Assembly: GCA_051117555.1 (NCBI GenBank)
Contig: JBNPEG010000008.1
Span: 1-13,500 of the forward strand
Direction of reading: 5' to 3'
Length of the DNA: 13,500 nt
Source: Elainellaceae cyanobacterium
GTDB taxonomy: Bacteria > Cyanobacteriota > Cyanobacteriia > CAZCXK01
The notes under the pieces are model-generated. The model did no database searches and was not told the DNA's origin. It worked only from the letters and a program-made list of their open reading frames with translations. The number at the start of each line of letters is the position of its first letter. The stretch's first letter is position 1. The translations under genes were made by a program, and so were the position numbers. This document shows, piece after piece, positions 1 to 13,500 of this stretch.

Positions 1-126
1 GCAAGACATTGTGCTATTCCAAGTGCGTGAATATGCTGAAGCACTCTATCCGTTTGCTACTGCACTACCTCAGATTTGGGGAAGTGCCTGTCCCAGCATA
101 GATTCATACCCTTATTCAGCAACGCC
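1..126 (-). mobile_element. Probable end of an IS5-like element or MITE, extending left out of the window
   Basis: The minus strand reads TTAG|GGCGTTGCTGAATAAGGGTATGA. The GGC terminus and the adjacent CTAA (127-130) fit IS5-family ends and their YTAR targets. A 21/24-identical copy lies at 2046-2069. No transposase is visible, and the family assignment is from recall. Confidence 0.55.
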
Positions 127-143
127 CTAATTGTTAATGTCAT
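57..143 (-). pseudogene. 5' stub of a gene divergent from the LysR gene, apparently interrupted after about 5 codons
   Basis: ATG at 143 follows a purine-rich GAAGGGA, with in-frame ATGs at 155, 164 and 170. The frame reads MTLTI, enters the IS-like end and stops at 57-59. This is the usual position of a LysR target gene. Confidence 0.35.
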
Positions 144-227
144 GGTTGAATTCATTCCCTTCATTGCCATAGTTCCACCATAATTCGACTCACAAAGAAT
201 GTTAATATAGCTTGCGCGCTAAGCACC

Positions 228-244
228 TTTGCATTTTTTGCAAA
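228..244. promoter_or_regulatory. LysR-type T-N11-A recognition box
   Basis: Dyad TTTGCA-N5-TGCAAA containing T230-N11-A242, about 20 nt upstream of the LysR start and between divergent start codons. Confidence 0.65.
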
Positions 245-263
245 ACTGGAGGTTACGCAGGAA

Positions 264-1193
264 ATGGATCAACTCGCGGCAATGCGATCATTTGTCAAAG
301 TGGTTGAAACAGGTGGATTCTCGGAAGCCGCACGACAACTGAGCCTTGCGGTATCTTCGGTTACTCGGCAAGTCAATGCTCTCGAATCTCTGTTGAACAC
401 TCAGTTGCTCAATCGTTCTACTCGCAGTATCACTCTTACGCCACAGGGGTATAAATACTACGACAAGGTAGTACAGATTTTGCAAGATGTAGAAGAAGCC
501 AATCTCTGTGCCATGGAGCAGGGTGATATTCCTCGTGGGATTCTGCGAGTGAGTTTACCCGTTGCATTCGGACGACTCCATATCGCTCCGATTCTCGGTG
601 ATTTTCTGACTCAATATCCAGATATTCAGCTTGAGCTTCAGGTAAGCGATGGTTTAGCCAATCTAGTTGAGGAAGCGCTTGATGTCGTGATTCGTATTTG
701 CAACCTCGATCATTCCAATGCTTATCTGATCGTTCGCAAATTAGCTGCCTTTAATCGCTTAGTCTGCGGTAGTCCAGCATATTTTGAGCAATATGGGGAA
801 CCTATTCATCCAAATGAATTAGTTCAGCATAACTGTTTATTATTTGCACATTCTCAGGGCTATAAAAGTTGGCGATTCCAGAGAGGAACCGACGTTTACG
901 ACATACGTGTGCAGGGTTCCTTGGTAGCAAATAATTCGGAGATACTTCGCCAAGTATGTTTAGACGGTATTGGACTGATCTTTATGCCAACTTGGCTAAT
1001 TGGAGAAGATCTTCGAGCAGGACGGTTACAAACCGTATTGACTACCTTTCAAATCTATCCTCAAGACGAGATGGATAGGGGGATTTATGCACTTTATCTG
1101 CCCAATCGCAGACATTCCTTGAGAGTTAAAACATTTATTGACTTCCTCATCGAACGGTTTGGGAATCAGCCTATGGGGGAACCGTTTGAGTAG
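264..1193 (+). CDS. LysR-family transcriptional regulator (CrgA/DmlR-like)
   Basis: 309 aa. N-terminal LysR HTH (FVKVVETGGFSEAARQL...VTRQVNALE...LLNRSTRSITLT) and a CrgA-like effector domain (PRGILRVSLP, LVEEALDVVIR). GGAGG lies upstream. Confidence 0.95.
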   Translation: MDQLAAMRSFVKVVETGGFSEAARQLSLAVSSVTRQVNALESLLNTQLLNRSTRSITLTPQGYKYYDKVVQILQDVEEANLCAMEQGDIPRGILRVSLPVAFGRLHIAPILGDFLTQYPDIQLELQVSDGLANLVEEALDVVIRICNLDHSNAYLIVRKLAAFNRLVCGSPAYFEQYGEPIHPNELVQHNCLLFAHSQGYKSWRFQRGTDVYDIRVQGSLVANNSEILRQVCLDGIGLIFMPTWLIGEDLRAGRLQTVLTTFQIYPQDEMDRGIYALYLPNRRHSLRVKTFIDFLIERFGNQPMGEPFE

Positions 1194-1308
1194 GTTGCGT
1201 CAATGACGCACCTTCCTCTGTACATTGCATCAACACAGCAGGCAATACAATGGGCGATCGCACTTATAGATTGATATGCGGTGCGTTTGCTTCGCAACAC
1301 ACCCTTGC
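1190..1308. repeat. Inverted pair of REP-like hairpins (REPIN-like doublet)
   Basis: GTAGGTTGCGTCAATGACGCACC at 1190-1212 (+) and GCAAGGGTGTGTTGCGAAGCAAACGCACC at 1308-1280 (-). Both end in ACGCACC and are in opposite orientation, 67 nt apart. Confidence 0.6.
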
Positions 1309-1355
1309 ATGATTACTACTACTCGCGCGAAGGGGCGATCGCACGCTTCTGCCTT

Positions 1356-1383
1356 GTAAGGGCTTTGCATGCAAAGCCCCTAC
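1356..1383. repeat. 28-bp GTAG-type REP-like palindrome
   Basis: GTAAGGGCTTTGCATGCAAAGCCCCTAC is self-complementary except for one pair and starts GTAGGGGC on the minus strand. It lies between converging genes. Confidence 0.7.
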
Positions 1384-1400
1384 CCTGATATGGGCTACTA

Positions 1401-1685
1401 CTACTGCTCGTGCGATCGCCAGCGAATCAAATAACTCATCACGTCACCCTCCTCTGGTGTAATTACGATGACTGTTTCAGGCACTGTGATCAACTGACTC
1501 CATAACCCTTGCTCCACATAGTTGAGCACATGCAAACGGTTAATCGTGTGCCGCACTCCTGCACGAGACCCGAGCAGAATATGACGCAAGGGTTCTCGAC
1601 TGGGTTGACCCGATGGGGATGCTATCAATAGGGGCTCTGTCGCCTCACTGCGAGAGCGAGACGAGGATAGATACGGTACTAACAT
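1401..1685 (-). CDS. Small cyanobacterial hypothetical protein (94 aa)
   Basis: Start moved from 1781 to the ATG at 1685, which has GGAGG 8 nt upstream. A disordered S/P-rich N-terminus precedes REPLRHILLGS...TINRLHVLNYVEQGLWS...GDVMSYLIR, which I recall from an uncharacterised cyanobacterial family. Three tandem TAG stops follow. Confidence 0.75.
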   Translation of the reverse strand: MLVPYLSSSRSRSEATEPLLIASPSGQPSREPLRHILLGSRAGVRHTINRLHVLNYVEQGLWSQLITVPETVIVITPEEGDVMSYLIRWRSHEQ

Positions 1686-1773
1686 GAGGGATTCCTCCAA
1701 CGTAATGGGGTAAGAATCCCAAAAATTTAGCCACCCCAGACATGGTGCAGTGCGGGGTGGCCTCAGGTAACAT
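1645..1773 (-). CDS. Putative 42-aa upstream ORF overlapping the small-protein start
   Basis: GGAGG (1786-1782) lies 8 nt before ATG 1773. The frame reads MLPEATPHCTMSGVAKFLGFLPHYVGGIPHVSTVSILVSLSQ to TGA at 1647-1645, out of frame with the main ORF. Confidence 0.3.
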   Translation of the reverse strand: MLPEATPHCTMSGVAKFLGFLPHYVGGIPHVSTVSILVSLSQ

Positions 1774-1870
1774 AGGCACATCCTCCGCGACAGGCGTAAT
1801 CTGTCGTGGGGGTCAGGTATCGGGAGTTGTTTGCACCAACTCTCGGTACCGCCTGACTAAATTTTTGGGG
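1688..1870 (-). ncRNA. Multi-branch structured RNA element (5' leader or antisense RNA)
   Basis: Perfect 13-bp closing stem 1718-1730/1857-1869. Inner hairpins at 1730-1761, 1782-1812 and 1812-1857. An RBS-covering hairpin at 1688-1720. Complementary motifs at 1743-1749 and 1832-1838. Confidence 0.65.
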
Positions 1871-1905
1871 AAACCAAGCTGTTAGACAAACAGCTATAGC
1901 ATCCA

Positions 1906-1934
1906 ACGCTATCGGATTTGGGGATGCGAGTCAA
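1906..1934 (-). promoter_or_regulatory. Predicted sigma70-type promoter for the leader and small protein
   Basis: Minus strand TTGACT (1934-1929), 17-nt spacer, TAGCGT (1911-1906). Predicted transcription start near 1899. Confidence 0.5.
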
Positions 1935-1998
1935 GTCAAAACGGCTACCAAACCTCAGCAATATCTGGATACAACCCATTGATGGCGAACTGCCAATG

Positions 1999-2069
1999 TT
2001 ATTAATGCAACGCCCAATCTGATGGGAGTAACGGGTTTAGTGGGGTCATACTATTATTCAGCAGCGCCC
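1999..2069 (-). mobile_element. Two degenerate IS/MITE terminal-repeat relics
   Basis: TCATACTATTATTCAGCAGCGCCC (2046-2069) matches 104-127 at 21/24 positions. TTATTAATGCAACGCCC (1999-2015) shares the GCAACGCCC end. All three have the same orientation. Confidence 0.45.
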
Positions 2070-2272
2070 AAATAATGGATATACGCCTTTCAGGTATCTA
2101 AAATAACAGACCCATGATGACAACCTAATAAAGTTATCTTAATCAAACTGCGTTCTAATCCTAAACAGTGGAGAGCGACAATAGGCCGTCGGTGGTCAAT
2201 TCGATCGGCACTGATTCAATATGGGGGAGTCGTCCCTGTAGCAGTTTTATTAGACTTTCTGGAGGAGATTAC

Positions 2273-4789
2273 ATGGTTTCTACGACACCTAACACGATTC
2301 AGTTTGAAGACGATCGCACAGGGTTAAGTGTCGAAACCCTACGGCGTGCCATTGCGGATAATCTCTTCTATCTCCAAGGCAAGTTTCCAGGGATTGCGAC
2401 CCAAAACGACTATTACATGGCCTTGGCCTATACCGTGCGCGATCGCCTCCTACACCGATGGTTAAACACCACACGAATCTATCTCGAACAGAAAGTCCGT
2501 GTTGTGTGCTACCTATCTGCTGAGTTTCTAGTTGGCCCTCATACGGGCAAAAATCTAATCAACTTAGGCATCTATGACGAGGTAAAACAGGCCGTTGAAG
2601 AGTCTGGACTAGATCTCGATGAATTGCTGGAGCAAGAAGAAGAACCAGGTTTGGGCAACGGGGGGCTGGGTCGGTTAGCCGCTTGTTATTTAGATTCTCT
2701 CTCAACCCTTGAAATTCCAGCCGTTGGATACGGGATTCGCTACGAATTTGGCATCTTTGATCAAGAGATTCGAGACGGATGGCAGGTTGAAATTACGGAT
2801 AAGTGGTTAGCACCAGGAAACCCGTGGGAGATCGCTCGTCCTGAAGCCTCCGTGCAGGTCAAGTTTGGAGGACATACCGAATCATACACCGATCAGCAGG
2901 GCTGTTATCGAGTCAGATGGGTGCCTCATAGCCTTGTCAAAGGCGTTCCGTATGACACCCCCATCGTTGGCTATCAGGTCAATACTGCAAATACCTTACG
3001 CCTATGGAGAGCCGAGGCCCCTGAGTCATTTAACTTTCAGGCATTTAATGTAGGCAATTATTATGGTGCGGTTGACCAAAAGGTTGTGTCTGAAAACCTG
3101 ACAAAAGTTCTCTATCCCAATGATGAACCTATTCAAGGCAAGCAACTCCGTCTCCAGCAGCAGTACTTCTTTGTGTCATGTTCTCTGCAAGACATGATTC
3201 GTATTCATTTAGCGACGAATCAGTCGTTAGACACATTTCATGAAAAATTTGCGGTTCAACTCAATGACACCCATCCGTCTATTGGGGTTGCAGAACTGAT
3301 GCGGCTGCTGATTGATGACCATGGCATGGGCTGGGATCAAGCTTGGCATGTCACCCAAAATGCTTTTGCCTTTACCAATCATACTCTACTGCCTGAAGCG
3401 TTAGAAAAGTGGCAGATCGATCTATTTGGAAATCTTTTGCCTCGCCACTTAGAAATCATTTATGAGATCAACGAGCGATTTCTCAATCAGGTGCGGATTC
3501 GATTTGGAGGGGATGGTCGGCTCAGTGACCTATCACTGATTGATGAAGGGGGCGATCGCTACGTTCGCATGGCGCATCTTGCCTGTGTGGGCAGTCATAA
3601 GATTAACGGCGTCGCTGAACTTCATTCAGAATTGATTAAGCAAACTATTCTGCGTGACTTCTACGAGATTAGCCCTGAGAAATTTTGCAATGTTACTAAC
3701 GGTGTAACCCCTCGTCGATGGATACTATTGAGCAATCCTCAACTGGCCGATTTGATTAATCGAAAAATCGGAGGAAACTGGGTCAAACATCTAGAAGAAT
3801 TGCGACAGCTAGAAACATGGGTAGACGATCCTGACTTTCGATCGGAATGGAGACAGATTAAGCAGTCGGTTAAGCAGAATCTGACAGAGCGCATTCGCGA
3901 TCGCACGGGCGTTATTGTCAATCCCAACTCGCTATTTGATATTCAAGTCAAACGAATTCACGAATATAAGCGGCAGCATCTCAACGCTTTACACATTCTC
4001 ACCCTCTATCATCGCCTCAAACACAATCCTGACCTAGATATTGTGCCGCGTACGTTCATCTTTGGTGGCAAGGCAGCCCCCGGCTATTTCATGGCCAAGT
4101 TAGTCATTAAGCTGATTACCTCAGTCGGTGAGGTGATCAATCAAGATCCTGATGTGCGCGATCGCCTCAAGGTCGTATTCTTGCCAGACTATAACGTGAC
4201 CAATAGCCAACCGGTTTATCCGGCTGCCGATCTATCAGAACAAGTCTCAATGGCAGGCAAAGAAGCATCCGGAACGGGAAACATGAAGTTTTCCTTGAAC
4301 GGTGCATTGACGATTGGCACCCTCGATGGAGCAAACCTTGAAATTCGGGAAGAGGTCGGAGCTGAAAACTTTTTCTTATTTGGGCTGACGGCATCTGAAG
4401 TCAATGACGTTAAAGCAAAGGGGTATCATCCTTGGGAGTACTACCAGGCAAACGACCAACTGCGAGCTGTGATTGATTGGCTTGGGTCTGGATTGTTTTC
4501 TCGCGGCGATACCAGCCTGTTTCGCCCTCTAATTGACTCGTTGATGCATGACGACCCGTTCATGCTGTTTGCAGACTATCAGTCCTACATCGACTGCCAA
4601 GATCGGGTGAGTCAAGCCTATCGAGATCAAGACAACTGGACTCGCATGTCTATCTTGAATGCGGCTCGTACGGGTAGGTTTTCGAGCGATCGCGCAATTC
4701 GCGAATATTGCCAAACCATCTGGAATGTCAAGCCTGTGACGATTGAGCTTCGTGATTATGTTCAAGCAAATGCTGGCTTAAATGCATAG
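2273..4789 (+). CDS. glgP: Glycogen/starch/alpha-glucan phosphorylase (GT35)
   Basis: Motifs GLGNGGLGRLAAC, QLNDTHP, NGVTPRRW, QVKRIHEYKRQ and the PLP-lysine signature EASGTGNMKF. Start placed at ATG 2273 (838 aa) after GGAGGAG at 2261-2267. Confidence 0.97.
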   Translation: MVSTTPNTIQFEDDRTGLSVETLRRAIADNLFYLQGKFPGIATQNDYYMALAYTVRDRLLHRWLNTTRIYLEQKVRVVCYLSAEFLVGPHTGKNLINLGIYDEVKQAVEESGLDLDELLEQEEEPGLGNGGLGRLAACYLDSLSTLEIPAVGYGIRYEFGIFDQEIRDGWQVEITDKWLAPGNPWEIARPEASVQVKFGGHTESYTDQQGCYRVRWVPHSLVKGVPYDTPIVGYQVNTANTLRLWRAEAPESFNFQAFNVGNYYGAVDQKVVSENLTKVLYPNDEPIQGKQLRLQQQYFFVSCSLQDMIRIHLATNQSLDTFHEKFAVQLNDTHPSIGVAELMRLLIDDHGMGWDQAWHVTQNAFAFTNHTLLPEALEKWQIDLFGNLLPRHLEIIYEINERFLNQVRIRFGGDGRLSDLSLIDEGGDRYVRMAHLACVGSHKINGVAELHSELIKQTILRDFYEISPEKFCNVTNGVTPRRWILLSNPQLADLINRKIGGNWVKHLEELRQLETWVDDPDFRSEWRQIKQSVKQNLTERIRDRTGVIVNPNSLFDIQVKRIHEYKRQHLNALHILTLYHRLKHNPDLDIVPRTFIFGGKAAPGYFMAKLVIKLITSVGEVINQDPDVRDRLKVVFLPDYNVTNSQPVYPAADLSEQVSMAGKEASGTGNMKFSLNGALTIGTLDGANLEIREEVGAENFFLFGLTASEVNDVKAKGYHPWEYYQANDQLRAVIDWLGSGLFSRGDTSLFRPLIDSLMHDDPFMLFADYQSYIDCQDRVSQAYRDQDNWTRMSILNAARTGRFSSDRAIREYCQTIWNVKPVTIELRDYVQANAGLNA

Positions 4790-4914
4790 AGTCAAACTCC
4801 GTTAAGCGGCTATCAAACCCGCATTCTCATGTCTCACCAGCAAAACTTTTATCGGGCGATTCAATAACGCGTAGACAGGGATCAAGCATGAGGCTTAGAT
4901 ACAGGGTGCTATAT

Positions 4915-4964
4915 CCAGATTCGTGCCAGATTCGTGCCAGATTCGTGCCAGATTCGTGCCAGAT
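4915..4964. repeat. 11-bp tandem repeat, 4.5 copies
   Basis: (CCAGATTCGTG)x4 plus CCAGAT, all perfect copies, between converging glgP and the desulfurase gene. Confidence 0.95.
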
Positions 4965-4987
4965 GGCGATATTTTTCGAGAATCGGC

Positions 4988-6154
4988 TTAAACGGGAGAA
5001 AGCACTCGTTCAGACATGAGTCGCCCCAAAATTTGCTTGAGCACCATCGCTGTCCAGTCGATGTCTGCCTGCGTGGTAAACCGTCCTACTGTTAGACGAA
5101 TGCCACATTTGGCAGCTCGCGAGTCGCAGCCCATCGCCGTCAGAATTGGACTGGGTAACAGTTTGCCACTGTGGCATGCTGATCCAGCGCTAATGCCTAT
5201 CCCTGCCAAATTCATATGACGAACTAACGTTTTACCGCTGAGATGTTCACCATCGCCGCTTTTGAGATAAAAGCTGACATGGTGAGGCAACCGATGCAGG
5301 CGATCGCCCGTCGGGATTAAGTCAGATACATCGGCAAGCTGATCAAACAGGCGATCGCGCAGTTGCATGAGCCGAAGCGATTCATCTGCCATCTCCTGCT
5401 GAGCTAGACTCGCCGCCAGGCCAAAGCCTGCGATTATCGGTACAGCCTGCGTTCCGGAGCGAATTTTGAATTCTTGCCCACCGCCCCCCAGAAGCGGCAT
5501 CAGGTCAACCCCCGGACGAACATATAACGCTCCTGCGCCTTGCGGACCATAGAGCTTATGGCTTGACATTGACACCAGATCGACGGGCAATCTCTGCACA
5601 TCGATGGGTAAGCGCCCTACCACTTGAACTGCATCGGTATGGAATACGATTTCATGGCGACGGGCAATTTGTCCGAGGGCTTCAATGGGTTGAAGTGTGC
5701 CCACTTCACTTTGCCCATAGATAAGCGAGATCAACACCGTATCCGAGCAAATAGCGGCCTCCAGATCCAGCGGATTGATGCGTCCTTGGGAATTGACGGG
5801 AAGGCGTGTCACCCGCCAACCGCGCTGCTCCAAAAAGTAAGCGGGTTCTGCGACGGCAGAATGCTCGATGCTAGAAATAATCAGATGCTGAGGCGTGGCA
5901 TAACGTTGAGCGACACCCATGACGGCTAGATTGTCAGACTCTGTGCCGCCCGATGTAAAGACAATCGACTCTGGCACTGCGTTCAACAAGTCGGCAACCT
6001 GAAGGCGCGATCGCTCAACGACCGTTGCCGAGCGTGCTCCCCACTGATGCAGGCTAGAAGGATTTCCCCACTGCTCTGTCATGATCTCGTGCATCAGGGC
6101 GATCGCCTCGGGTCGAGTCGGCGTTGTTGCACTATAGTCCAGATAAATTTGCAT
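4988..6154 (-). CDS. iscS: Cysteine desulfurase, IscS/NifS group I (PLP-dependent)
   Basis: Motifs IYLDYSATTP, GNPSSLH, FTSGGTESDN, HTDAVQ, PLP-lysine SSHKLYGPQG, RSGT and the catalytic SAGSAC. No isc, nif or suf neighbours, so the symbol is family-level only. Confidence 0.93.
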   Translation of the reverse strand: MQIYLDYSATTPTRPEAIALMHEIMTEQWGNPSSLHQWGARSATVVERSRLQVADLLNAVPESIVFTSGGTESDNLAVMGVAQRYATPQHLIISSIEHSAVAEPAYFLEQRGWRVTRLPVNSQGRINPLDLEAAICSDTVLISLIYGQSEVGTLQPIEALGQIARRHEIVFHTDAVQVVGRLPIDVQRLPVDLVSMSSHKLYGPQGAGALYVRPGVDLMPLLGGGGQEFKIRSGTQAVPIIAGFGLAASLAQQEMADESLRLMQLRDRLFDQLADVSDLIPTGDRLHRLPHHVSFYLKSGDGEHLSGKTLVRHMNLAGIGISAGSACHSGKLLPSPILTAMGCDSRAAKCGIRLTVGRFTTQADIDWTAMVLKQILGRLMSERVLSPV

Positions 6155-6348
6155 AAGAGATAATTCAGCTAGCCTCTCTTTTCAGCATATAGTGCCAATT
6201 GCCGATGCAACCATCAAACTGTTCGACTCTTTTAGATTCTAATCTGCGATTCATGTGCCGCATGAGAGCTCTCTCCCCTGATTGAAGGATGTTGAATACT
6301 TCTGTTTTGAATTAGTTTGAGAAGTCCGGCCATTTCTACTATCAGGCT

Positions 6349-7737
6349 ATGCGCGCATCATCACCATTTTCTCAACTCGCTCACGAAATTAGGGAATCTA
6401 CGGGATTGGCGATTCCCCTAGCCAGTGCCCAGCTTTCTCAAGCAGCAACTGGCTTTACAGATACCGTCATGCTGGGATTATTGGGCAGTCAAGCTTTAGC
6501 AGCCGGAGGACTGGGGGCTGTGACGTTTTCCGGGCTGCTGATTATCTGCACTAGTATTGTGTCTGCTGTCAGCCCCCTCGTTGCCGAGGCATACGGTGCA
6601 GGACAAACCAGCAGAGTTGGACAAGTTGCTAATCATGGATTGTGGCTAGCTGTGCTGCTTTCGGTTCCCATTATGCTGCTGATCTGGAACGCAGGCCCAC
6701 TCCTCAGCCTGCTTGGGCAGCAGCGTGAAAATAGTGTGCTGGCTGTGACATATTTACGAGGGATTGTTTGGGGATTTCTCCCTGCTTTAGCATTTGTGAC
6801 GCTAAAAAGCTTCGTGACGGCGCTATCCAAACCTCGCGCGGTGATGGCGGTGATGGTAGGTAGCGTCATCCTCAATGGAATTGCTAACTATGTGCTCATG
6901 TTCGGGAAGTTCGGGTTTCCAGCCCTGGGACTAGCCGGTACCGGATGGGCGAGTGCGATTGTCTATTGGATCATGTTTTTGGCGTTGGCGCTCTATATCG
7001 TAGATCAGCGATCGCTCAAAGGATATCGAGTCTTTCAAGACGTGTTTTATTTTAACGCCTCTTTGTTTTGGGAAATCGTTAGAATTGGCTGGCCGATTGG
7101 TGTACTCGCTGCCTTTGAAACCGGCATGTTTACTATTACCACCTTCTTGGCCGGGCAGATGGGCACCACGACTCTAGCCGCCCACCAAATTGCGCTCCAG
7201 ACCGCATCCGTTACCTTCATGGTGCCGCTGGGTATTTCACAAGCCGTGACCGTGCGCGTCGGGCAGTTGATCGGGCAGAAAAATCCTGAAGGGGCTCGAC
7301 TGGCAGGCTATGTGGGGATTGCTCTGGGGGCAATATTTATGGGCATCATGGCAGTCTTGATGTGGGCATTTCCCAATGGCATCATTTCGGTATACTTAGA
7401 CATTCGAAATCCTCAAAATCAGCCCGTCATGGCGATCGCAGCGGCACTGTTAAGCGTAGCGGCTGTTTTTCAAATTTTTGATGGCATCCAGGTGATTGCG
7501 GCAGGTGCCCTACGAGGTCTAAAAGATACTCGCATTCCGATGGTGATTGGCATCATTTCGTATTGGCTGGTGGGGTTCAGCAGCAGCTTTATCTTAGGAA
7601 TCATGCTGGGATGGGGAGGTGTGGGTCTTTGGTTTGGGCTAGCCGTTGGGCTCTCAGTTGCTGCAACGGTGCTGACCTGGCGATTTTGGGGATTGATTAC
7701 TCCCGCTGTCAAAACGCAAGAATCTTGGAAATACTGA
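6349..7737 (+). CDS. MATE family efflux transporter (NorM-like)
   Basis: 462 aa with about 12 hydrophobic segments. Motifs DTVMLGLLG, FGKFGFPALGLAG, LAAHQIALQ, FQIFDGIQVIAAGALRGLKDT. Confidence 0.93.
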   Translation: MRASSPFSQLAHEIRESTGLAIPLASAQLSQAATGFTDTVMLGLLGSQALAAGGLGAVTFSGLLIICTSIVSAVSPLVAEAYGAGQTSRVGQVANHGLWLAVLLSVPIMLLIWNAGPLLSLLGQQRENSVLAVTYLRGIVWGFLPALAFVTLKSFVTALSKPRAVMAVMVGSVILNGIANYVLMFGKFGFPALGLAGTGWASAIVYWIMFLALALYIVDQRSLKGYRVFQDVFYFNASLFWEIVRIGWPIGVLAAFETGMFTITTFLAGQMGTTTLAAHQIALQTASVTFMVPLGISQAVTVRVGQLIGQKNPEGARLAGYVGIALGAIFMGIMAVLMWAFPNGIISVYLDIRNPQNQPVMAIAAALLSVAAVFQIFDGIQVIAAGALRGLKDTRIPMVIGIISYWLVGFSSSFILGIMLGWGGVGLWFGLAVGLSVAATVLTWRFWGLITPAVKTQESWKY

Positions 7738-7820
7738 AATTTTTTGATTTCTGTTAGTCTGCTCAGTTCATCGGGCACTACTAAAACGCAATAGTTGTTG
7801 GCGTTAAATGGGTGTGTTGC

Positions 7821-9242
7821 ATGCGACTAAGTCAGACTTGGCTGCGGTTAAGATGGGCAATTTTACTGGGTTTCGTCACAGGGTTGAGTGCCTGCCGGAC
7901 TGGGGTGGCTCAGTCTCCCCGCCTCGAACCGCTCCCGCAAGATCCGCTGATCTACGCTTATTTCAACTACTCGCAAGCGGCTGCCTATCTCAATCCGTAT
8001 CGAGACCAGGAGCGGCTGGGGGATAATCTCGAACAGGCGATCATCGATGCGATCGCCTCTGCCCAGTCGTCGATTGACGTTGCGGTTCAAGAATTGCGGC
8101 TGCCCAGAGTGGCGGAGGCATTAAAAGAACGACATCAGGCGGGGGTAACCGTGCGCGTCATTTTGGAGAATAGTTATAGTCGCCCGTGGAGCAGTTTTAC
8201 GTCCCAAGAGATTAGCCAACTCGATGAGCGCGATCGCTCGAAATATCTAGATTTTGTGATGCTTGCTGATGGCGATCGCAACGGACAGCTATCTCCAGAC
8301 GAAATTGACCGCAGCGATGCTCTAGTGATCCTTCAAAACGCCGGTATTCCGTGGCTTGACGATACGGCAGATGGATCAAAGGGCAGTGATTTGATGCATC
8401 ACAAATTTATCGTGGTCGATCGGCGAATTGTCGTTGTGGGCTCTGCAAACTATACCCTAAGCGGCATCCACGGCGATATGCTGCGCCCCGACAGCCGAGG
8501 AAATGTCAATCATCTGTTGAAGATTGATAGCGTTGAGGTCGCGCGTCTCTTCTCCGACGAATTTAATCTTCTCTGGGGAGATGGCCCCGGCGGCGCATTA
8601 GACAGCAAATTTGGCTTGCAAAAACCCTATCGTCCGCCTCAGCGGGTGGCATTGACCCCCACCTCAAGCATCACCATCCAGTTTTCACCTACCTCTACCT
8701 CTCTTCCTTGGAATCAGAGCGTGAATGGCTTGATTGGCGAAACATTTGGGCGCGCAACCCGCTCGATTGACCTGGCACTGTTTGTGTTTTCTGACCAAAA
8801 TCTTGCGAATATACTTCAGACTCAGCAACAGCCAGGACTTCAAATGCGATCGCTGATTGATTCGGGATTTGCCTATCGCAACTACAGTGAAGCCCTTGAT
8901 ATGCTTGGCATTGCGCTGAAAGACAATCGGTGTCGCTACGAAGACGATAATAATCCGTGGCTCAACCCGTTGTTGACTGTCGGCGTTCCTCAACTTGCAG
9001 AGGGTGACGTTCTTCACCACAAGTTTGGTGTCCTTGACGCGCAAACTGTAATCACCGGATCGCAAAATTGGAGCGAAGCCGCCAATCACAGCAACGATGA
9101 AGATTTACTTGTGATTGAGAATTCTACCGTCGCAGCTCATTTTCAGCGAGAGTTTGACCGTCTCTACGCCACAGCACAGGTTGGCATTTCAACCGGCCTC
9201 CAAGAAAAATTGCACCATCAGCAAACTCGTTGCCCAGCGTAG
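7821..9242 (+). CDS. Phospholipase D-superfamily lipoprotein with two HKD motifs, similar to cyanobacterial competence protein ComA
   Basis: HKD motifs MHHKFIVVD...GSAN and LHHKFGVLD...GSQN. A basic then hydrophobic signal ends in the lipobox LSAC. Start placed at ATG 7821. Confidence 0.85.
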   Translation: MRLSQTWLRLRWAILLGFVTGLSACRTGVAQSPRLEPLPQDPLIYAYFNYSQAAAYLNPYRDQERLGDNLEQAIIDAIASAQSSIDVAVQELRLPRVAEALKERHQAGVTVRVILENSYSRPWSSFTSQEISQLDERDRSKYLDFVMLADGDRNGQLSPDEIDRSDALVILQNAGIPWLDDTADGSKGSDLMHHKFIVVDRRIVVVGSANYTLSGIHGDMLRPDSRGNVNHLLKIDSVEVARLFSDEFNLLWGDGPGGALDSKFGLQKPYRPPQRVALTPTSSITIQFSPTSTSLPWNQSVNGLIGETFGRATRSIDLALFVFSDQNLANILQTQQQPGLQMRSLIDSGFAYRNYSEALDMLGIALKDNRCRYEDDNNPWLNPLLTVGVPQLAEGDVLHHKFGVLDAQTVITGSQNWSEAANHSNDEDLLVIENSTVAAHFQREFDRLYATAQVGISTGLQEKLHHQQTRCPA

Positions 9243-9499
9243 TGTCATGTCTAATCCAATCAAATTTATGTGGAAGGAGAGAAAGGCTCTAGCCTATTTG
9301 TTTCGTATAGTGAGGACATATTTTTGCTGGTCTTAGCGAATAAAACAGCAAAGCAGGGCTTTCTCATGTCAGAAATCAGACGATTTATGCCAGCCATTGA
9401 ACCGTATCTGGCTTAGTCACTCGTGATGCACCACTGAATGCGATTAGGCATCAAACTGGATGGGCTCTGATTCCCATCTCAGCCTATCGAAGAGATGAC

Positions 9500-9529
9500 T
9501 TGACTCAAGATTCTCTAAATCTTTATAGT
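9500..9529 (+). promoter_or_regulatory. Predicted sigma70-type promoter upstream of the SRPBCC gene
   Basis: TTGACT (9500-9505), 18-nt spacer, TATAGT (9524-9529). Confidence 0.45.
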
Positions 9530-9662
9530 TTGCATGCAAATGAGACGTAGAACTTTATTATTCACCTGCTATTCTGCTGATGGTTTAAATTAGCAAATCC
9601 GATGAAGAGCCTAGCTAGTTTCAAATTCGTCAAGTTCTCAATCTCTTACTGAATGTGCGATC

Positions 9663-9713
9663 GCCCAAGTCGCAGTGCCCAAGTCGCAGTGCCTGGGTCG
9701 CAGTGCCTGGGTC
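9663..9713. repeat. 14-bp tandem repeat, about 3.6 copies in two variants
   Basis: (GCCCAAGTCGCAGT)x2, GCCTGGGTCGCAGT, GCCTGGGTC. It begins inside a HIP1 site (9657-9664). Confidence 0.9.
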
Positions 9714-9769
9714 CACTTAGTAAGAGTGAGATGCTTCGAGTTGTATTATGCAGGAGTTTCAAACTCAAT

Positions 9770-10348
9770 ATGACTTCATTCGCCACTCTAGGATCTGTTG
9801 ACACCGCATCGAGTCTGGTTGATCACGGGACCCAAACTGCTTTGTTAAAAGGCGAAATCCTTTTAGAAACTCAGCCCCATTCGGCATGGGGGGGCGTCGT
9901 TACCGCTCAGATGTATATTCCTATCGGGCGATCGCAGGTTTGGCAGCAACTCACCGACTATCCTCAGTGGGTCAACTTTTTTCCAGATGTCATTCGCAGC
10001 GAGGTCATTTCTCGAGGAGATGGATTAACTAAAGGCGGAAAACGGCTTTACCAGGTCGCTCGTAAGGCGTTCTTCCTGTTTACAGCTCAAGTTGAAGTCC
10101 ATCTTCGTGTATTTGAAACCGCCCATGCCAGTACGTGGCAACAGATTCGATTTTTGATGGAAAGAGGCAGTTTCAACGATTTCTCAGCCGATCTAAAACT
10201 TCATGACTACAGCAGTGGCACTCTATTGACCTATACGGTGAAAGCGACTCCTGCATTTCCGGTGCCAACTGCTCTGATTCAGCAGGCAATGCGGTTAGAT
10301 TTACCTGATAATATGCGAAGCATGCGTCGAGTATTATGCAAGCAATAG
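9770..10348 (+). CDS. SRPBCC / polyketide cyclase-dehydrase family protein
   Basis: Pattern VTAQMYIP...QVWQQLTDYPQWVNFFPDVIRSEVI, GSFNDFSADLKL, TLLTY and a C-terminal helix. Start placed at ATG 9770 (192 aa) after CAGGAG. Confidence 0.85.
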   Translation: MTSFATLGSVDTASSLVDHGTQTALLKGEILLETQPHSAWGGVVTAQMYIPIGRSQVWQQLTDYPQWVNFFPDVIRSEVISRGDGLTKGGKRLYQVARKAFFLFTAQVEVHLRVFETAHASTWQQIRFLMERGSFNDFSADLKLHDYSSGTLLTYTVKATPAFPVPTALIQQAMRLDLPDNMRSMRRVLCKQ

Positions 10349-10393
10349 TTAGATTGACAACCGGTTCGATAGTCTAAGGTTTTTTTAATCTCT

Positions 10394-11149
10394 ATGGCAT
10401 ATTTACCTACCGTGTTTCGAAGTCTGCGCTTGGTCTTAGTTTCGTTGGGAATCGCAAGCATGTCCTCCGTTACAAGTTTTGCGCAGGCTGCGAGTCCTCC
10501 GGTTGAGCAAGACGACTTCAGCAGTGAGATGATAGAATCGCCAGCTGCTCAGCGGCTAATGGAAATGTTTTCTCCCGACATTCAGTCGGTGTTGAGTGCG
10601 TGTGCTGAGAATGGGGGAGTCGATTTAGACGCGGGTGAAACTGCTGATGGAACTCTAGTCTGCGGAGACGGAACTCCAAATACTGAAACGCCCTACTCAA
10701 CTTATTTGAGTACAGTGTCAAACCTATTGGCAGCTAGTGGTTTGGTTGGCTTTCGGGCCGTTATCGATTCCAATCCTCAAATCAGCCCTGAGCTGATTTC
10801 GACCTATCTATCGAGTTCTCAAGGGGCTGATATTTTGCGGTCGGCTGTTGAAATGGGCATCGCTCAGAGTCAACTTTTGCCAGGAGTTGTGCCTGAGTCT
10901 TCAATGATATTGGTTGATGAAGTGATTAGTCGAATGCTTCCTACATTGCAAAGTCCTGCTGCTTTGGGCGATTTAATGGGAACGCCAGAACAATATAACC
11001 AAGTCGTTAGTAATTTCTGCACTGCTCCGGGAATGCCCGTCGAGCAAGCAACGCAGCTCGTCGCTGGATTAAGCACCCTTCAGCTTTATTCAATTTGCAT
11101 TCAAGAGTCAGGAATTGCGAGTCAAGTTCAGCAGATGCTCGATCCATAA
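10394..11149 (+). CDS. Secreted acidic hypothetical protein
   Basis: 251-aa ORF with a Sec-like signal (RSLRLVLVSLGIASM...FAQA), an acidic mature part and four Cys. Confidence 0.75.
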   Translation: MAYLPTVFRSLRLVLVSLGIASMSSVTSFAQAASPPVEQDDFSSEMIESPAAQRLMEMFSPDIQSVLSACAENGGVDLDAGETADGTLVCGDGTPNTETPYSTYLSTVSNLLAASGLVGFRAVIDSNPQISPELISTYLSSSQGADILRSAVEMGIAQSQLLPGVVPESSMILVDEVISRMLPTLQSPAALGDLMGTPEQYNQVVSNFCTAPGMPVEQATQLVAGLSTLQLYSICIQESGIASQVQQMLDP

Positions 11150-11283
11150 TTGATTGCATCGAGGATACCGATTCTGGTGCAGTTCTTCACGACACTGCTT
11201 TGATTAGCCTGCACAGAAGATATCTCTATCCCGATGCAGGCTATTGGGTCACTCATAATCTGTATGCCTCAGTGTGAAGCACC

Positions 11284-11880
11284 TCAACGAATATGGCTGT
11301 CACCGGATACGTCGAAGATGCTATCGCCGCGATCATAGAAATGAAGCCGTCCGTATCCTAAAAACTGTCCTTGGGGTGTCTCTCCGTCTGGAAACGCTGT
11401 CACGCCAAACAGATAGACCCCTGACCGACGAGGATTCCGCTCTGGTTCAAGCCGGATCGTGATATCGGTTCCGGGCGGAACAGGCGGATCAAAATTGACG
11501 GTAATAGACTGGTCATCACGATTCCAAACAACATCGCCCAAGCTCAACTCACTGCCCCTATTCCGGTGACTCCCTGTAAATGCCTGAGTGTCTTCAGGAT
11601 TGTATTGAATCTCTCGCACAAAGCTTTCTCCATCGCGCTGAGCAATGACGACCTGTTGCAAGGGTTCTCCTGCATTTTCAGGAATGCTTAGGTCAAAATA
11701 GTATCGGACTCTGCTATCAGACACGGTCCGCCGAGTGGTGGATGCCTGAAGCAGACTAGGCGGATGATCAAATGCAACTCGCCCATCTGGAAACTGAACT
11801 GCACGGCTTGGCATAGTCAATATGCTGCCGATACTCAGAGATGCGGCTAAGCTTATGCTGACCCATTTTCCACTATCCAT
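11284..11880 (-). CDS. DUF2808 domain secreted protein
   Basis: Signal peptide, then YYFDLSIPENAGEPLQQVVIAQ, FDPPVPPG, NPRRSGVYLFGVTAFP and QFLGYGRLHF, as recalled for cyanobacterial DUF2808. GGAGG at 11895-11891. Confidence 0.85.
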   Translation of the reverse strand: MDSGKWVSISLAASLSIGSILTMPSRAVQFPDGRVAFDHPPSLLQASTTRRTVSDSRVRYYFDLSIPENAGEPLQQVVIAQRDGESFVREIQYNPEDTQAFTGSHRNRGSELSLGDVVWNRDDQSITVNFDPPVPPGTDITIRLEPERNPRRSGVYLFGVTAFPDGETPQGQFLGYGRLHFYDRGDSIFDVSGDSHIR

Positions 11881-12263
11881 CGTGTTGCTACCTCCAAAAC
11901 CTTTGATTTACTGTAATGAAAGTTCTAGAAATCCGTCATTAAAGCACGTCGCTGAATTAGTGTGGTGACTGTTTCTGGGAAACTCATTCCTTTGGCAGCA
12001 ATCGACTTAGCATTTACCGCAGATCTGTAGCAGCATCTCTGTCAAGCGATCGCCCCAGTGCTTACGATGCTTGTCCCTCCAAGGTAATTCAGGTGTCTCT
12101 TCCGGACTCCCTATATTAAAGATACGCAATCAGTTCACTAAATTGCGTAAAGCAAATCTGGTGATGCGTCGCTAGACACAAAATATAGCCCTACGGGCTC
12201 AGATTTGTATGTAGAATCCAAGCGCCGCGCGGGTTCTTAACACGTTCAGCTTCGAACCTTTGC

Positions 12264-13193
12264 TCAAGGCTGGGCTAACCAAGCGCTCAAGTCTTGTTGA
12301 ATCAAATCTTGAAGTTTTAGAATATCGTCGCGATAAATATTGAGAAGATTTTGTCGGGTATCGGGAGAAAGCGGCTGAGCCTTTGATTTTTCTGCCGAGT
12401 TGATTTGAATGAGGCGATCGCGCCAATACTGCCGGGTGTTGACTGGAACCATGAGTTTGAGTGCCGATGCTGCAATTGAACGCACTGGATTTCGGGTTCG
12501 CAGCATCTGATTCACCCATGAACTTTTTGGCACTTGAGCAACCTGTTCTCGTTTGCTGGTATCGGCAGCAAAAGCAGAATCAACGCCCACAAATTGATAA
12601 AGATTTTGCATCATCGCTAACGGATCGCGGCACAAATCATCGTAGAGATAGACCTTGATTTGATGGCGATCGAACATGCTGAAATAATGACTCAGCGGCT
12701 CATAATAAAATCCCTTTTTGAGAGTAAATGATTGATGCTCTGGAAATCGACGAATTTGTTCGGTCAGGCTTTCTTTGACGTTAATTGCTTCGCGGACATG
12801 CATTAGATAGTCGGAATAGGCGCGTTCAACCGGGTTGCGTAAAATCGCAACGAGTTTTGCCTGAGGAACGTATCGCTGAATGAGCCTTGACGAGGAGGTG
12901 TAGTGAAAGAGGTAGTTAGGAGACGCTTCGCCAATGGCAATTTCGTCTGTTATGCCCTTGAACAAGTTGCAATATTTTTCAAATGTGTCAATTCGTTCGA
13001 GTCGCCCCTGTTGAATCCTTTCTTGATTCACCTGCGCACGAATTGCCGGATCGACACTTTCCCAGTCTCGTTCTAGGAAATTTGTTTCCTTCACAGGACT
13101 CATATAAATCTGAGGATGCTGCTTAAGGTAATGGTAGACAGACGTAGTTCCAGCTTTCTGGACACCAATGATTAAAAAGTTGGGCAGCTTCAT
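12264..13193 (-). CDS. PAPS-dependent sulfotransferase
   Basis: 5'-PSB loop PNFLIIGVQKAGTT, KE motif, GEASPNY and the 3'-PB motif LRNPVERAYS. Confidence 0.92.
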   Translation of the reverse strand: MKLPNFLIIGVQKAGTTSVYHYLKQHPQIYMSPVKETNFLERDWESVDPAIRAQVNQERIQQGRLERIDTFEKYCNLFKGITDEIAIGEASPNYLFHYTSSSRLIQRYVPQAKLVAILRNPVERAYSDYLMHVREAINVKESLTEQIRRFPEHQSFTLKKGFYYEPLSHYFSMFDRHQIKVYLYDDLCRDPLAMMQNLYQFVGVDSAFAADTSKREQVAQVPKSSWVNQMLRTRNPVRSIAASALKLMVPVNTRQYWRDRLIQINSAEKSKAQPLSPDTRQNLLNIYRDDILKLQDLIQQDLSAWLAQP

Positions 13194-13221
13194 TGCAGGG
13201 TTCCACGTTGTCTAGACAGTT

Positions 13222-13249
13222 GAAATGCTGATTAGAAATGCTGATTAGA
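13222..13249. repeat. 13-bp tandem duplication
   Basis: (GAAATGCTGATTA)x2 followed by decayed CTGACT copies. Confidence 0.8.
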
Positions 13250-13310
13250 TACTGACTAGGCTGACTGGGATCATTCATGCCTTGTCATTGCGAGAAGATA
13301 TGTTAAGGCT

Positions 13311-13345
13311 CGATCTTAATGTCGCGATCTCAATGTCGCGATCGC
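13311..13345. repeat. 14-bp tandem duplication ending in a HIP1 site
   Basis: CGATCTTAATGTCG, CGATCTCAATGTCG, CGATCGC. Confidence 0.8.
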
Positions 13346-13380
13346 CATACCAATCGTAACAAAATCAAAAGTTTGTAGAC

Positions 13381-13500
13381 TCATATCTTGCACCTGGTAA
13401 TTTGAACTTCAATTCCCTGCTGTTGCAACAAGGAACGTTTTCGTTCGATATCGGCTAACAACAGTGTCACTAAAACATCTGCCAAAGCGGCTTCTAGCAC
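13381..13500 (-). CDS. Probable 3' end of a gene entering from the right edge (product unknown)
   Basis: Open frame from the window edge, VLEAALADVLVTLLLADIERKRSLLQQQGIEVQITRCKI, to TGA at 13383-13381. Same strand as the sulfotransferase. Confidence 0.45.
   Translation of the reverse strand: MLEAALADVLVTLLLADIERKRSLLQQQGIEVQITRCKI

Follow-up and report, generated by a model that had tools for sequence, protein, structure and literature searches.

In Escherichia coli, five cis-encoded small RNAs (sRNAs) of the Sib/Ibs loci each repress only their cognate mRNA (Han et al. 2010, PMC2943612). Discrimination is reported there to lie in two short variable recognition domains set within conserved sequence, the exchange of which transfers specificity, and the target sites in ibsC are placed in the open reading frame (ORF) and the translation-initiation region (PMC2943612). 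Systems of this kind, classed as type I, had according to a 2025 paper previously been found only in Proteobacteria, Firmicutes and Tenericutes; the same paper proposes a first cyanobacterial candidate, a membrane protein of 63 amino acids (aa) (PMC12390103). Here we describe a locus within 13,500 nucleotides (nt) of DNA from an Elainellaceae cyanobacterium (contig JBNPEG010000008.1, positions 1 to 13,500; 'the window'), where the mRNA leader of a small gene, P0001, represents a new structured-RNA family that is tied to a family of small proteins and probably has a cis-antisense RNA as its partner. A first-pass annotation of the window had proposed a cloverleaf-like leader RNA at this place, an undescribed riboregulatory element working through complementary motifs in its own loops. 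The idea is right in spirit and wrong in mechanism.

We call the minus strand of the window, which corresponds to the mRNA, the sense strand, and the plus strand the antisense strand. Along the sense strand the predicted order of elements is promoter, 5′ stem-loop, 5′ strand of an outer helix (P1), hairpins Ha and Hb, a linker, hairpin Hc, the 3′ strand of P1, a helix at the ribosome-binding site (RBS) and the start codon, so that P1 would enclose Ha, Hb and Hc in a four-way junction (coordinates in Table 1). The outer stem of 13 base pairs (bp), the 8-bp GC stem and the stems of 12 and 14 positions all lie where the first-pass annotation had put them, and they fold far beyond shuffled sequence. 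For the 171 nt from 1710 to 1880 the folding energy is −68.1 kcal/mol (z −4.84) when the minus strand is folded and −81.2 kcal/mol (z −6.22) for the plus strand, with 0 of 200 shuffles as good in either case; the plus strand from 1780 to 1869 folds at −45.0 kcal/mol (z −6.14), compared with −32.6 kcal/mol for the minus strand of the same stretch. We detected no transfer RNA or transfer-messenger RNA in the window, and a cmscan search against all 4227 families of Rfam 15, at E-values up to 1, gave nothing at 1700–1900. The annotators had recognized no named riboswitch here, and neither C4 nor c4-2 nor c4-a1b1 matched the element; five further copies likewise gave no match above any family's gathering score. 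The sole Rfam match in the window, to a nematode small nucleolar RNA model at 11479–11578, is unrelated and due to chance, and in another copy (L126) a sub-threshold match to a microRNA model (E 0.06) clips the end of the element on the other strand.

The predicted sense promoter, TTGACT-17-TAGCGT, is present in the sequence and has homologous boxes elsewhere, but a consensus scan did not flag it: TAGCGT was missed by a simple promoter scan because just three of its six positions match the consensus. At the equivalent site other copies carry TTGAC(T/G), then 17–18 nt, then TAnnnT, with TAGCGT, TAAATT, TATGAT, TACAAT or TACGCT at the −10 position; in other genomes the site reads TTGACG-17-TACAAT and TTGACG-18-TACGCT, both canonical. 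Next comes the 5′ stem-loop, for which 60 of 79 distinct copies have the more stable fold on the sense strand and 17 have it on the antisense strand; its loop differs between near-identical copies. At the other end of the leader, the Shine-Dalgarno sequence (SD) GGAGG lies at 1698–1694 with the ORF starting 8 nt downstream, and the 5′ arm of the RBS hairpin has GGG in common with P1. In distant copies an unrelated pair, GCGCUCCUU with AAGGAGCGU, fills the role of the RBS helix and again overlaps P1. The overlap between the RBS helix and the 3′ strand of P1 amounts to 3 nt in close copies and 5–7 nt in distant ones.

Searching the genome with BLAST and nhmmer, we found six copies of the element. 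Homology among them does not stop at the two arms of P1 but extends over window positions ~1409 to ~1940, and the repeat unit therefore includes the small ORF and the promoter region; their DNA identity is 72–79%, save for one pair at 93%. A covariance model (R1), built from an alignment of 12 close copies (A2), was widened in two rounds to give alignment A8, with 61 copies of which 60 are distinct. R1 located copies before distant paralogues whose stem sequences are quite different. In A8, 86.0% of the cells are paired, against 67.6% in shuffled alignments. Compensatory changes occur in 39 of the 46 pairs, and the covariation score, which was reached by 0 of 500 shuffles, collapses when the partners are slid by 1–3 columns. 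By helix, among the 60 distinct copies, compensation is found in 12 of 12 pairs of P1, 14 of 14 of Ha and 10 of 12 of Hb; the unpaired residues of the junction are conserved in the A8 consensus. RNAalifold, run on a plain MAFFT alignment of 11 distant copies, recovered P1, Ha, Hb and Hc with 11 compensated pairs. Two other alignments were set aside: A3, with eight reverse-strand matches to the nearly palindromic structure, was discarded, and A5, a MAFFT alignment of both subgroups with the P1 strands out of register, was excluded from counting. As an independent set we used 28 copies from named genera outside model building, among them Kaiparowitsia, Trichocoleus, Sphaerothrix, Almyronema, Nodosilinea, Phormidesmis and Leptolyngbya foveolarum.

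The element accompanies one gene family almost without exception. A second model, R2, matches 12 of 151 sampled genomes of the phylum, with at least 18 copies in the genome studied here and 14 in one complete genome. We counted 22 copies in this genome; all 21 that could be tested lie directly upstream of a paralogue of P0001 on the same strand, and the 22nd is 65 nt from a contig end. Over all genomes, which belong to several cyanobacterial families, 84 of 89 copies have an ORF of the family downstream on the same strand, starting 20–32 nt past the end of the model. Of the five that do not, two are truncated loci and two are weak hits, and at one locus a different ORF follows. No neighbour family around the 22 copies recurs in more than three loci. 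The structured element that had been proposed to lie between promoter and small gene is thus conserved upstream of homologues, and covaries there. A third model, R3, found the leader at 0 of 48 loci of more distant members of the protein family (L031–L056 and L148–L165: the best f3 hits, f7 genomes, a Nodosilinea group at 48% identity and heterocystous forms). Many relatives of the protein are therefore without this leader, or have one too diverged for detection. In the f3 genomes it is a subfamily of greater divergence, with proteins starting MSQEF, that has the leader upstream.

A covarying structured domain in the 5′ untranslated region (UTR) of a gene family is what is expected of a cis-regulatory leader, and it is well supported that this leader constitutes a conserved structured RNA family absent from Rfam 15. 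Our literature searches found no description of this RNA or of the protein family. A screen of 202 cyanobacterial genomes, published in 2026, takes KEGG orthologue groups as its anchors, and its main text holds no passage on glgP or such repeats; its supplements could list a structure there (PMC12873609).

The strand on which the structure makes best sense differs from helix to helix. An A-C mismatch on the sense strand is a G-U pair on the antisense strand, and we counted the non-Watson-Crick cells of A8 on this basis. Read on the sense strand, P1 has 55 G-U against 12 A-C, and Hc 45 G-U against 6 A-C. In contrast, Ha has 112 A-C against 2 G-U and Hb 84 A-C against 6 G-U. By the equivalence just given, it is on the plus strand that Ha and Hb make proper hairpins. 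The same division is seen in the 28 independent copies, where the ratios of A-C to G-U on the sense strand are 47:2 for Ha, 28:10 for Hb, 1:15 for P1 and 3:8 for Hc. Folding energies agree. For Ha, 83 of 87 copies have the more stable fold on the antisense strand (mean −21.2 as against −14.3 kcal/mol), and for Hb 71 of 87; for Hc, 64 of 87 have it on the sense strand.

A conserved motif is found beside these two hairpins. The linker between Hb and Hc is variable in sequence and ranges in length from 14 to 28 nt. Within it, the plus strand has TAnnnT 8–10 nt before the base of Hb′ (Hb as read on the plus strand) in 51 of 61 copies, where shuffling gives a mean of 17.6. Over 47 distinct copies the six positions read T in 45, A in 47, two free positions, A in 44 and T in 42, and TGn often stands just upstream of the TAnnAT box; the exceptions at this site read TAAAAC or CATAAT. 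In the independent set, 18 of 28 copies have a strict TAnnnT 7–11 nt before Hb′, and the remaining ten have NAnnAT at 8 nt. The motif is anchored to Hb, not to Hc. Judged by promoter consensus, the pattern is that of a −10 box, partly of the extended type. This box stands just upstream of Ha and Hb as read on the opposite strand, the one on which these two of the three hairpins form better, and recognition between the leader and a cis-encoded antisense RNA is therefore likelier than recognition within the leader.

The loops of Ha and Hb are hypervariable. Among 65 pairs of copies with 90% identity or more outside these loops, the Ha loop differs in 49% and the Hb loop in 39% of columns, as compared with 11% for the Hc loop, 3.1% for stems and 5.2% for other unpaired columns. 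For the 38 pairs whose ORFs are of equal length, the Ha and Hb loops together differ at 46.2%, fourfold synonymous sites at 15.8%, codon positions 1 and 2 at 3.7% and the rest of the leader at 4.3%. This puts change in the loops at about three times the rate of the best available neutral proxy, in a comparison of related, not independent, pairs that gene conversion could distort. The 22 copies of this genome have 22 distinct Ha/Hb loop pairs; a second, complete genome has 14 copies with 13 loop pairs and only six distinct Hc loops.

One difference between loops has a recognizable form. The Ha loop of the window copy, together with flanking stem bases, occurs as its exact inverse complement in a paralogue on contig C21 (L058) and in an orthologue-like copy of genome G002 (L022), both of which are otherwise ~93% identical to the window copy. 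Judged from the sequence, this is a minute inversion of the hairpin tip. Hairpin-tip inversions are known from plastid non-coding DNA. Two other ideas about the loops led nowhere: anticodon mimicry by the Ha loop was dropped, the U2/A6 pattern being symmetric under reverse complement and many loops being of 6 nt, and YUNR U-turn motifs gave nothing decisive (Ha, 37 on the sense and 42 on the antisense strand; Hb, 9 and 28).

We consider it moderately probable, on balance, that the structured leader and a cis-antisense sRNA recognize each other through their loops and that this lowers expression of the small protein. The box TAACAT in the linker would drive an antisense RNA of ~85–90 nt from the opposite strand, consisting of Hb′ followed by Ha′, which are the stabler forms of the two hairpins. 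At its own locus, the antisense RNA would engage the leader by contacts between loops, both at Ha and at Hb, and the probable effect on the small gene is repression. We infer that the antisense RNA is made and that it represses, by one of three conceivable routes: the duplex could trigger decay; the 3′ strand of P1 could be released and close the RBS; or termination could be favoured at Hc and the U run behind it. On the sense strand, Hc is followed by a run of at least four U at an offset of 4 nt in 52 of 87 copies, and by inspection we found no anti-terminator alternative to Hc. Because both RNAs would be copied from the same DNA, a change in a loop would keep the cognate pair matched and unmatch it from other copies; every copy would for this reason come to have a loop pair of its own. 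Inversion of a hairpin tip would then change specificity in a single step.

Several observations weigh against the antisense model. On inspection, the antisense promoter lacks a convincing −35 box in the window. Past Ha′, a run of at least four U occurs only at 6–13 nt and only in 47 of 87 copies, without a canonical antisense terminator; with so distant and patchy a U run, the 3′ end of the antisense RNA is undefined. The linker's conserved AUnnUA, like the A-C mismatches, may belong instead to the sense RNA, and the antisense RNA itself is a prediction. Alignments A8 and A9 were fitted to the structure of the model, and copies within one genome are related, so that the counts are not of independent events. 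Furthermore, the free leader already has a largely paired SD by partition-function modelling of 77 copies (mean unpaired 0.25). With the antisense target masked, this becomes 0.20 and 0.21, the SD being more paired in 16 of the 77 copies and less paired in 5, with the rest unchanged. As masking barely alters SD pairing, a relay from P1 to the SD lacks support from thermodynamics alone. In view of these points, a purely cis-acting leader and a stable leader RNA both remain serious rivals to antisense control.

A purely cis-acting leader is the stronger of the two, and we rate it as unlikely. It would be a riboswitch or would be bound by a protein, perhaps its own product; the state of P1 would decide whether the RBS is closed, the junction would act either as an aptamer or as a platform for binding, the sense RNA would account for the A-C mismatches and the AUnnUA linker, and there would be no antisense RNA. 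Such a leader would fit the conservation of a covarying junction, unpaired residues included, upstream of a single gene family, as well as the wobble pairs of P1 and Hc on the sense strand, the overlap of the RBS helix with the 3′ strand of P1 in two versions unrelated in sequence, and the predicted pairing of most of the SD. It leaves unexplained, however, why Ha and Hb are systematically better on the other strand, why an exact −10 pattern keeps a fixed distance from Hb and not from Hc across a linker of 14–28 nt, and why two loops outpace synonymous sites and are unique to each copy. Moreover, up to 22 copies of an aptamer per genome, each before a paralogue of a protein of unknown function, would be unusual for a metabolite sensor.

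It is less probable still, and in our judgement a distinctly long shot, that the sense leader accumulates as a stable non-coding RNA (ncRNA) that ends at Hc and its U run, is sealed by P1, and works with or against the small protein. A type III-like RNA antitoxin or an RNA–protein particle would be examples, with the loops addressing nucleic acids in trans. The GC-rich Hc and its U run in 52 of 87 copies would provide the end of such an RNA, P1 would pair its 5′ and 3′ ends, and RNA and protein are almost always linked. A gap of 4 nt between stem and U run, however, is not canonical for a terminator. The element also lacks the tandem repeats of ToxI-type antitoxins, the protein matches no PADLOC family, and the antisense-strand wobble pairs of Ha and Hb are again left without explanation.

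The mechanism favoured in the first-pass annotation, a C4-like cloverleaf processed from the leader and regulating the downstream gene through a 7-nt contact, kissing or pseudoknot, of the Ha apex with the Hc loop, appears very improbable. The two 7-mers do exist, TGGTGCA at 1743–1749 (+) and TGCACCA at 1832–1838 (+), and a 7-nt match is rare, being found in 2 of 87 copies against 0.1 per 87 with mismatched partners. But their complementarity is not conserved: among the 87 distinct copies, two reach a longest complement of 7 nt between the Ha and Hc loops, a further two reach 6 nt and four reach 5 nt, and the other 79 do not exceed 4 nt, a distribution equal to that of the mismatched-partner control. 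In the closest relatives of the window copy it is 4, 4 and 3 nt, and in the C21 paralogue with the inverted Ha loop the Ha and Hc loops bear the same-sense word. The contact is thus specific to the window copy, and the 7-mers do not covary. Kinship with the P1/P7 C4 or P4 CI RNAs, which had been offered as the precedent, finds no backing either, as neither the window copy nor the five others match an Rfam family, the C4 families included, at E-values up to 1, and no phage genes lie nearby (the neighbours encode a LysR regulator and a glycogen phosphorylase, and there is no PHROGs match).

That the repeat is a MITE (miniature inverted-repeat transposable element) or other small mobile repeat with the 13-bp stem as its terminal inverted repeats, the outcome that the annotation had said would overturn its proposal, is scarcely credible: the genome does hold repeats of the sequence, many of them close to a contig end, and an IS200-like transposase gene is near 3 of 22 loci, but the copies keep one fixed orientation directly upstream of the paralogues of one gene (21 of 21 testable here, 84 of 89 overall), the repeat unit contains the gene, with homology passing both arms into gene and promoter, the stems differ by compensatory changes at 12 of 12 P1 pairs and are not identical ends (no formal search for target-site duplications was made), the copies are old, at 72–79% DNA identity apart from the 93% pair, and the locus is at the same place in a sister genome (L020).

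Returning to antisense control of the leader, we put forward one broader proposal, which is tentative and, taken as a whole, rather doubtful. The loci may form a widespread cyanobacterial class of addressable sense/antisense modules controlling a soluble toxin or growth regulator, which would be a non-membrane family of type I toxin–antitoxin systems. New specificities would arise by tip inversion and loop mutation, with selection driving the loops apart faster than neutral drift. The class would range over Elainellaceae, Nodosilinea, Leptolyngbya-like and related thin filamentous forms, with as many as 22 orthogonal copies in a genome, each joining a structured leader to a two-hairpin antisense RNA of its own. 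Should the antisense RNA be real, the loci amount to a large natural set of mutually orthogonal RNA–RNA regulator pairs on one scaffold. They would allow direct study of how cross-talk is escaped among paralogous antisense systems and of how new specificities originate, given the inverted loop between the window copy and its 93% paralogue, and would supply a toolbox of orthogonal riboregulators for cyanobacterial engineering. Type I-like antisense control is barely described in Cyanobacteria, with one 2025 paper claiming a first candidate (PMC12390103). The leader also offers a regulatory handle on a multi-copy protein family that has no Pfam match, and even without an antisense RNA it would be a well-supported structured RNA family missing from Rfam 15.

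The relatives of P0001 are annotated solely as hypothetical proteins, in Elainellaceae and other cyanobacteria. The family has 21 matches in this genome at E-values up to 1, is present in 50 of 401 sampled genomes of the phylum, and comprises at least 456 clusters at 50% identity (E up to 0.001). P0001 had no NCBIfam match and one Pfam match, a chance one at E 0.12; none of 66 family members has a Pfam family. Searches of PADLOC and PHROGs with P0001 gave no match, and a sequence search of the PDB nothing below E 0.45. An AlphaFold2 model of P0001 reached a mean predicted local distance difference test (pLDDT) score of 80.2. It had no Foldseek match at E 0.001 or better, its best VIA-align Z was 4.3, under the meaningful level, and matches in the ESM Atlas were to unnamed cyanobacterial clusters only. 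Proteins of the family are 78–100 aa long, and in the model we see one long strand, one helix and one closing strand but no membrane helix; the small protein is, going by this model, a soluble alpha/beta protein. In one copy (L061, contig C168, copy a) the ORF has a 2-nt deletion and then a 26-nt insertion relative to two near-identical relatives. These scramble the conserved LRHxxxGS stretch of the protein, and the copy is possibly decaying.

The surroundings of the copies vary. An IS200-like Y1 transposase gene lies on the other strand 180–1000 nt upstream of the leader in 3 of 22 copies (contigs C152, C187 and C203); that on C152 (L092, 420–1226 (+)) encodes 268 aa and matches Pfam Y1_Tnp at E 5.5e-19. 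The remaining 19 copies have no Y1 transposase gene nearby. At the orthologous locus of the sister genome (L020; genome G003, contig C382) the 5′ half of the leader is absent and the ORF is intact. Past the apex of Ha the sequence resumes matching the window at ~2053–2110, so that ~200 nt including the sense promoter are gone, which could be a real deletion or an assembly join. Tandem repeats of units of about seven residues lie just 3′ of the gene on C21, C168b and C71, and an AAGGCA-type repeat lies between leader and start codon on C219 and C95 (L097 and L099). On seven contigs (C65, C152, C219, C71, C95, C240 and C187) copies lie no more than 2 kb from the end of the contig. Probably the assembly breaks at the repeated module, and 22 is therefore a lower bound on copy number. 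The other genes of the window are given at the foot of Table 1.

Table 1. Elements of the leader locus and neighbouring genes, in window coordinates (+, plus strand; −, minus strand)
Feature	Position	Strand	Basis or remark
Leader of the mRNA of the 94-aa gene	1899 to 1686	−	5′ leader, start predicted
Sense −35 box TTGACT, predicted	1929–1934	−	Sequence; 17-nt spacer to −10 box
Sense −10 box TAGCGT, predicted	1906–1911	−	Start expected at ~1899
5′-terminal stem-loop, 7-bp stem and 5-nt loop	1877–1895	−	Leader fold
P1 outer helix, perfect 13 bp	1857–1869 (5′ strand on mRNA) with 1718–1730 (3′ strand)	−	Sequence, fold
Hairpin Ha, 14 positions, loop 1830–1836	1816–1850, possible basal extension to 1857	−	Sequence
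Hairpin Hb, 12 positions, loop 1794–1800	1782–1812	−	Sequence
Hairpin Hc, 8-bp GC stem, 16-nt loop partly conserved	1730–1761	−	Sequence
RBS hairpin, GGGAUUC (1720–1714) pairing with GAAUCCC (1695–1689)	1688–1720	−	Sequence comparison
Antisense −10 box TAACAT, predicted, in the Hb–Hc linker	1768–1773	+	Conserved motif; start predicted at ~1779–1781, foot of Hb′
Cis-antisense sRNA, predicted, ~85–90 nt (Hb′, Ha′, U run 1862–1866)	1780–1866	+	3′ end uncertain
Small gene P0001, 94 aa	1685–1404; also given as 1685–1401	−	ORF; multi-copy cyanobacterial family
LysR regulator	264–1193		Pfam
Glycogen phosphorylase	2168–4789		Pfam
Class-V aminotransferase	4988–6154	−	Pfam
MATE transporter	6349–7737		Pfam
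Phospholipase-D-type protein	7812–9242		Pfam
Polyketide-cyclase/START protein	9653–10348		Pfam
ORF without Pfam assignment	10394–11149		
DUF2808 protein	11284–11880	−	Pfam
Sulfotransferase	12264–13193	−	Pfam

Among described systems, the P1/P7 C4 and P4 CI RNAs resemble the element in being small structured regions of a leader RNA with short loop motifs proposed for recognition, and differ from it in Rfam membership, phage context and the conservation of loop complementarity, all of which are lacking here. Type I systems come closer. In tisB/istR-1, zorO/orzO, dinQ/agrB and symE/symR the sRNA pairs with the 5′ UTR, and the locus described here has in common with them a predicted antisense regulator opposite the leader, a long structured leader with an RBS predicted to be closed, and duplicated copies. 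Neither the four-way junction nor the two-hairpin antisense RNA has, to our knowledge, a counterpart in type I systems. A type I toxin is a small toxic protein, usually a hydrophobic peptide of under 60 aa; the proteins of the P0001 family have 78–100 aa and no membrane helix in the model, and membership of the type I class is not established. The 63-aa cyanobacterial candidate (PMC12390103) is unrelated to the P0001 family.

The closest analogue in logic, if the antisense RNA is as predicted, is Sib/Ibs. Several paralogous loci occur in one genome in both cases, and the loops of Ha and Hb would be the counterparts of the Sib recognition domains; as in Sib/Ibs, paralogues are set apart by variable regions, with 22 loop pairs for 22 copies. 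Unlike Sib/Ibs, to which there is no relationship in sequence or in Rfam, the locus has an antisense RNA that is a prediction and a predicted overlap that lies ~100 nt upstream of the start codon, and it encodes a protein that is apparently soluble and of alpha/beta type, whereas the Ibs toxins are described as tiny hydrophobic peptides (IbsA, 19 aa).

In layout, the locus recalls antisense control in plasmids. Plasmids pT181 and pIP501 use attenuation driven by a countertranscript, and CopA/CopT of plasmid R1 is controlled through kissing loops. Unlike these systems, the element is chromosomal, is present in up to 22 copies and has no replication gene, and unlike in pT181 and pIP501 the U run lies 4 nt from the Hc stem and no anti-terminator was identified. 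The order of parts is nevertheless alike: a promoter, target hairpins, an antisense promoter on the other strand, a GC hairpin with a U run, an RBS and the gene. The likeness would extend to the way of recognition, which in the plasmids is through hairpin loops, where changes in a loop create new specificities.

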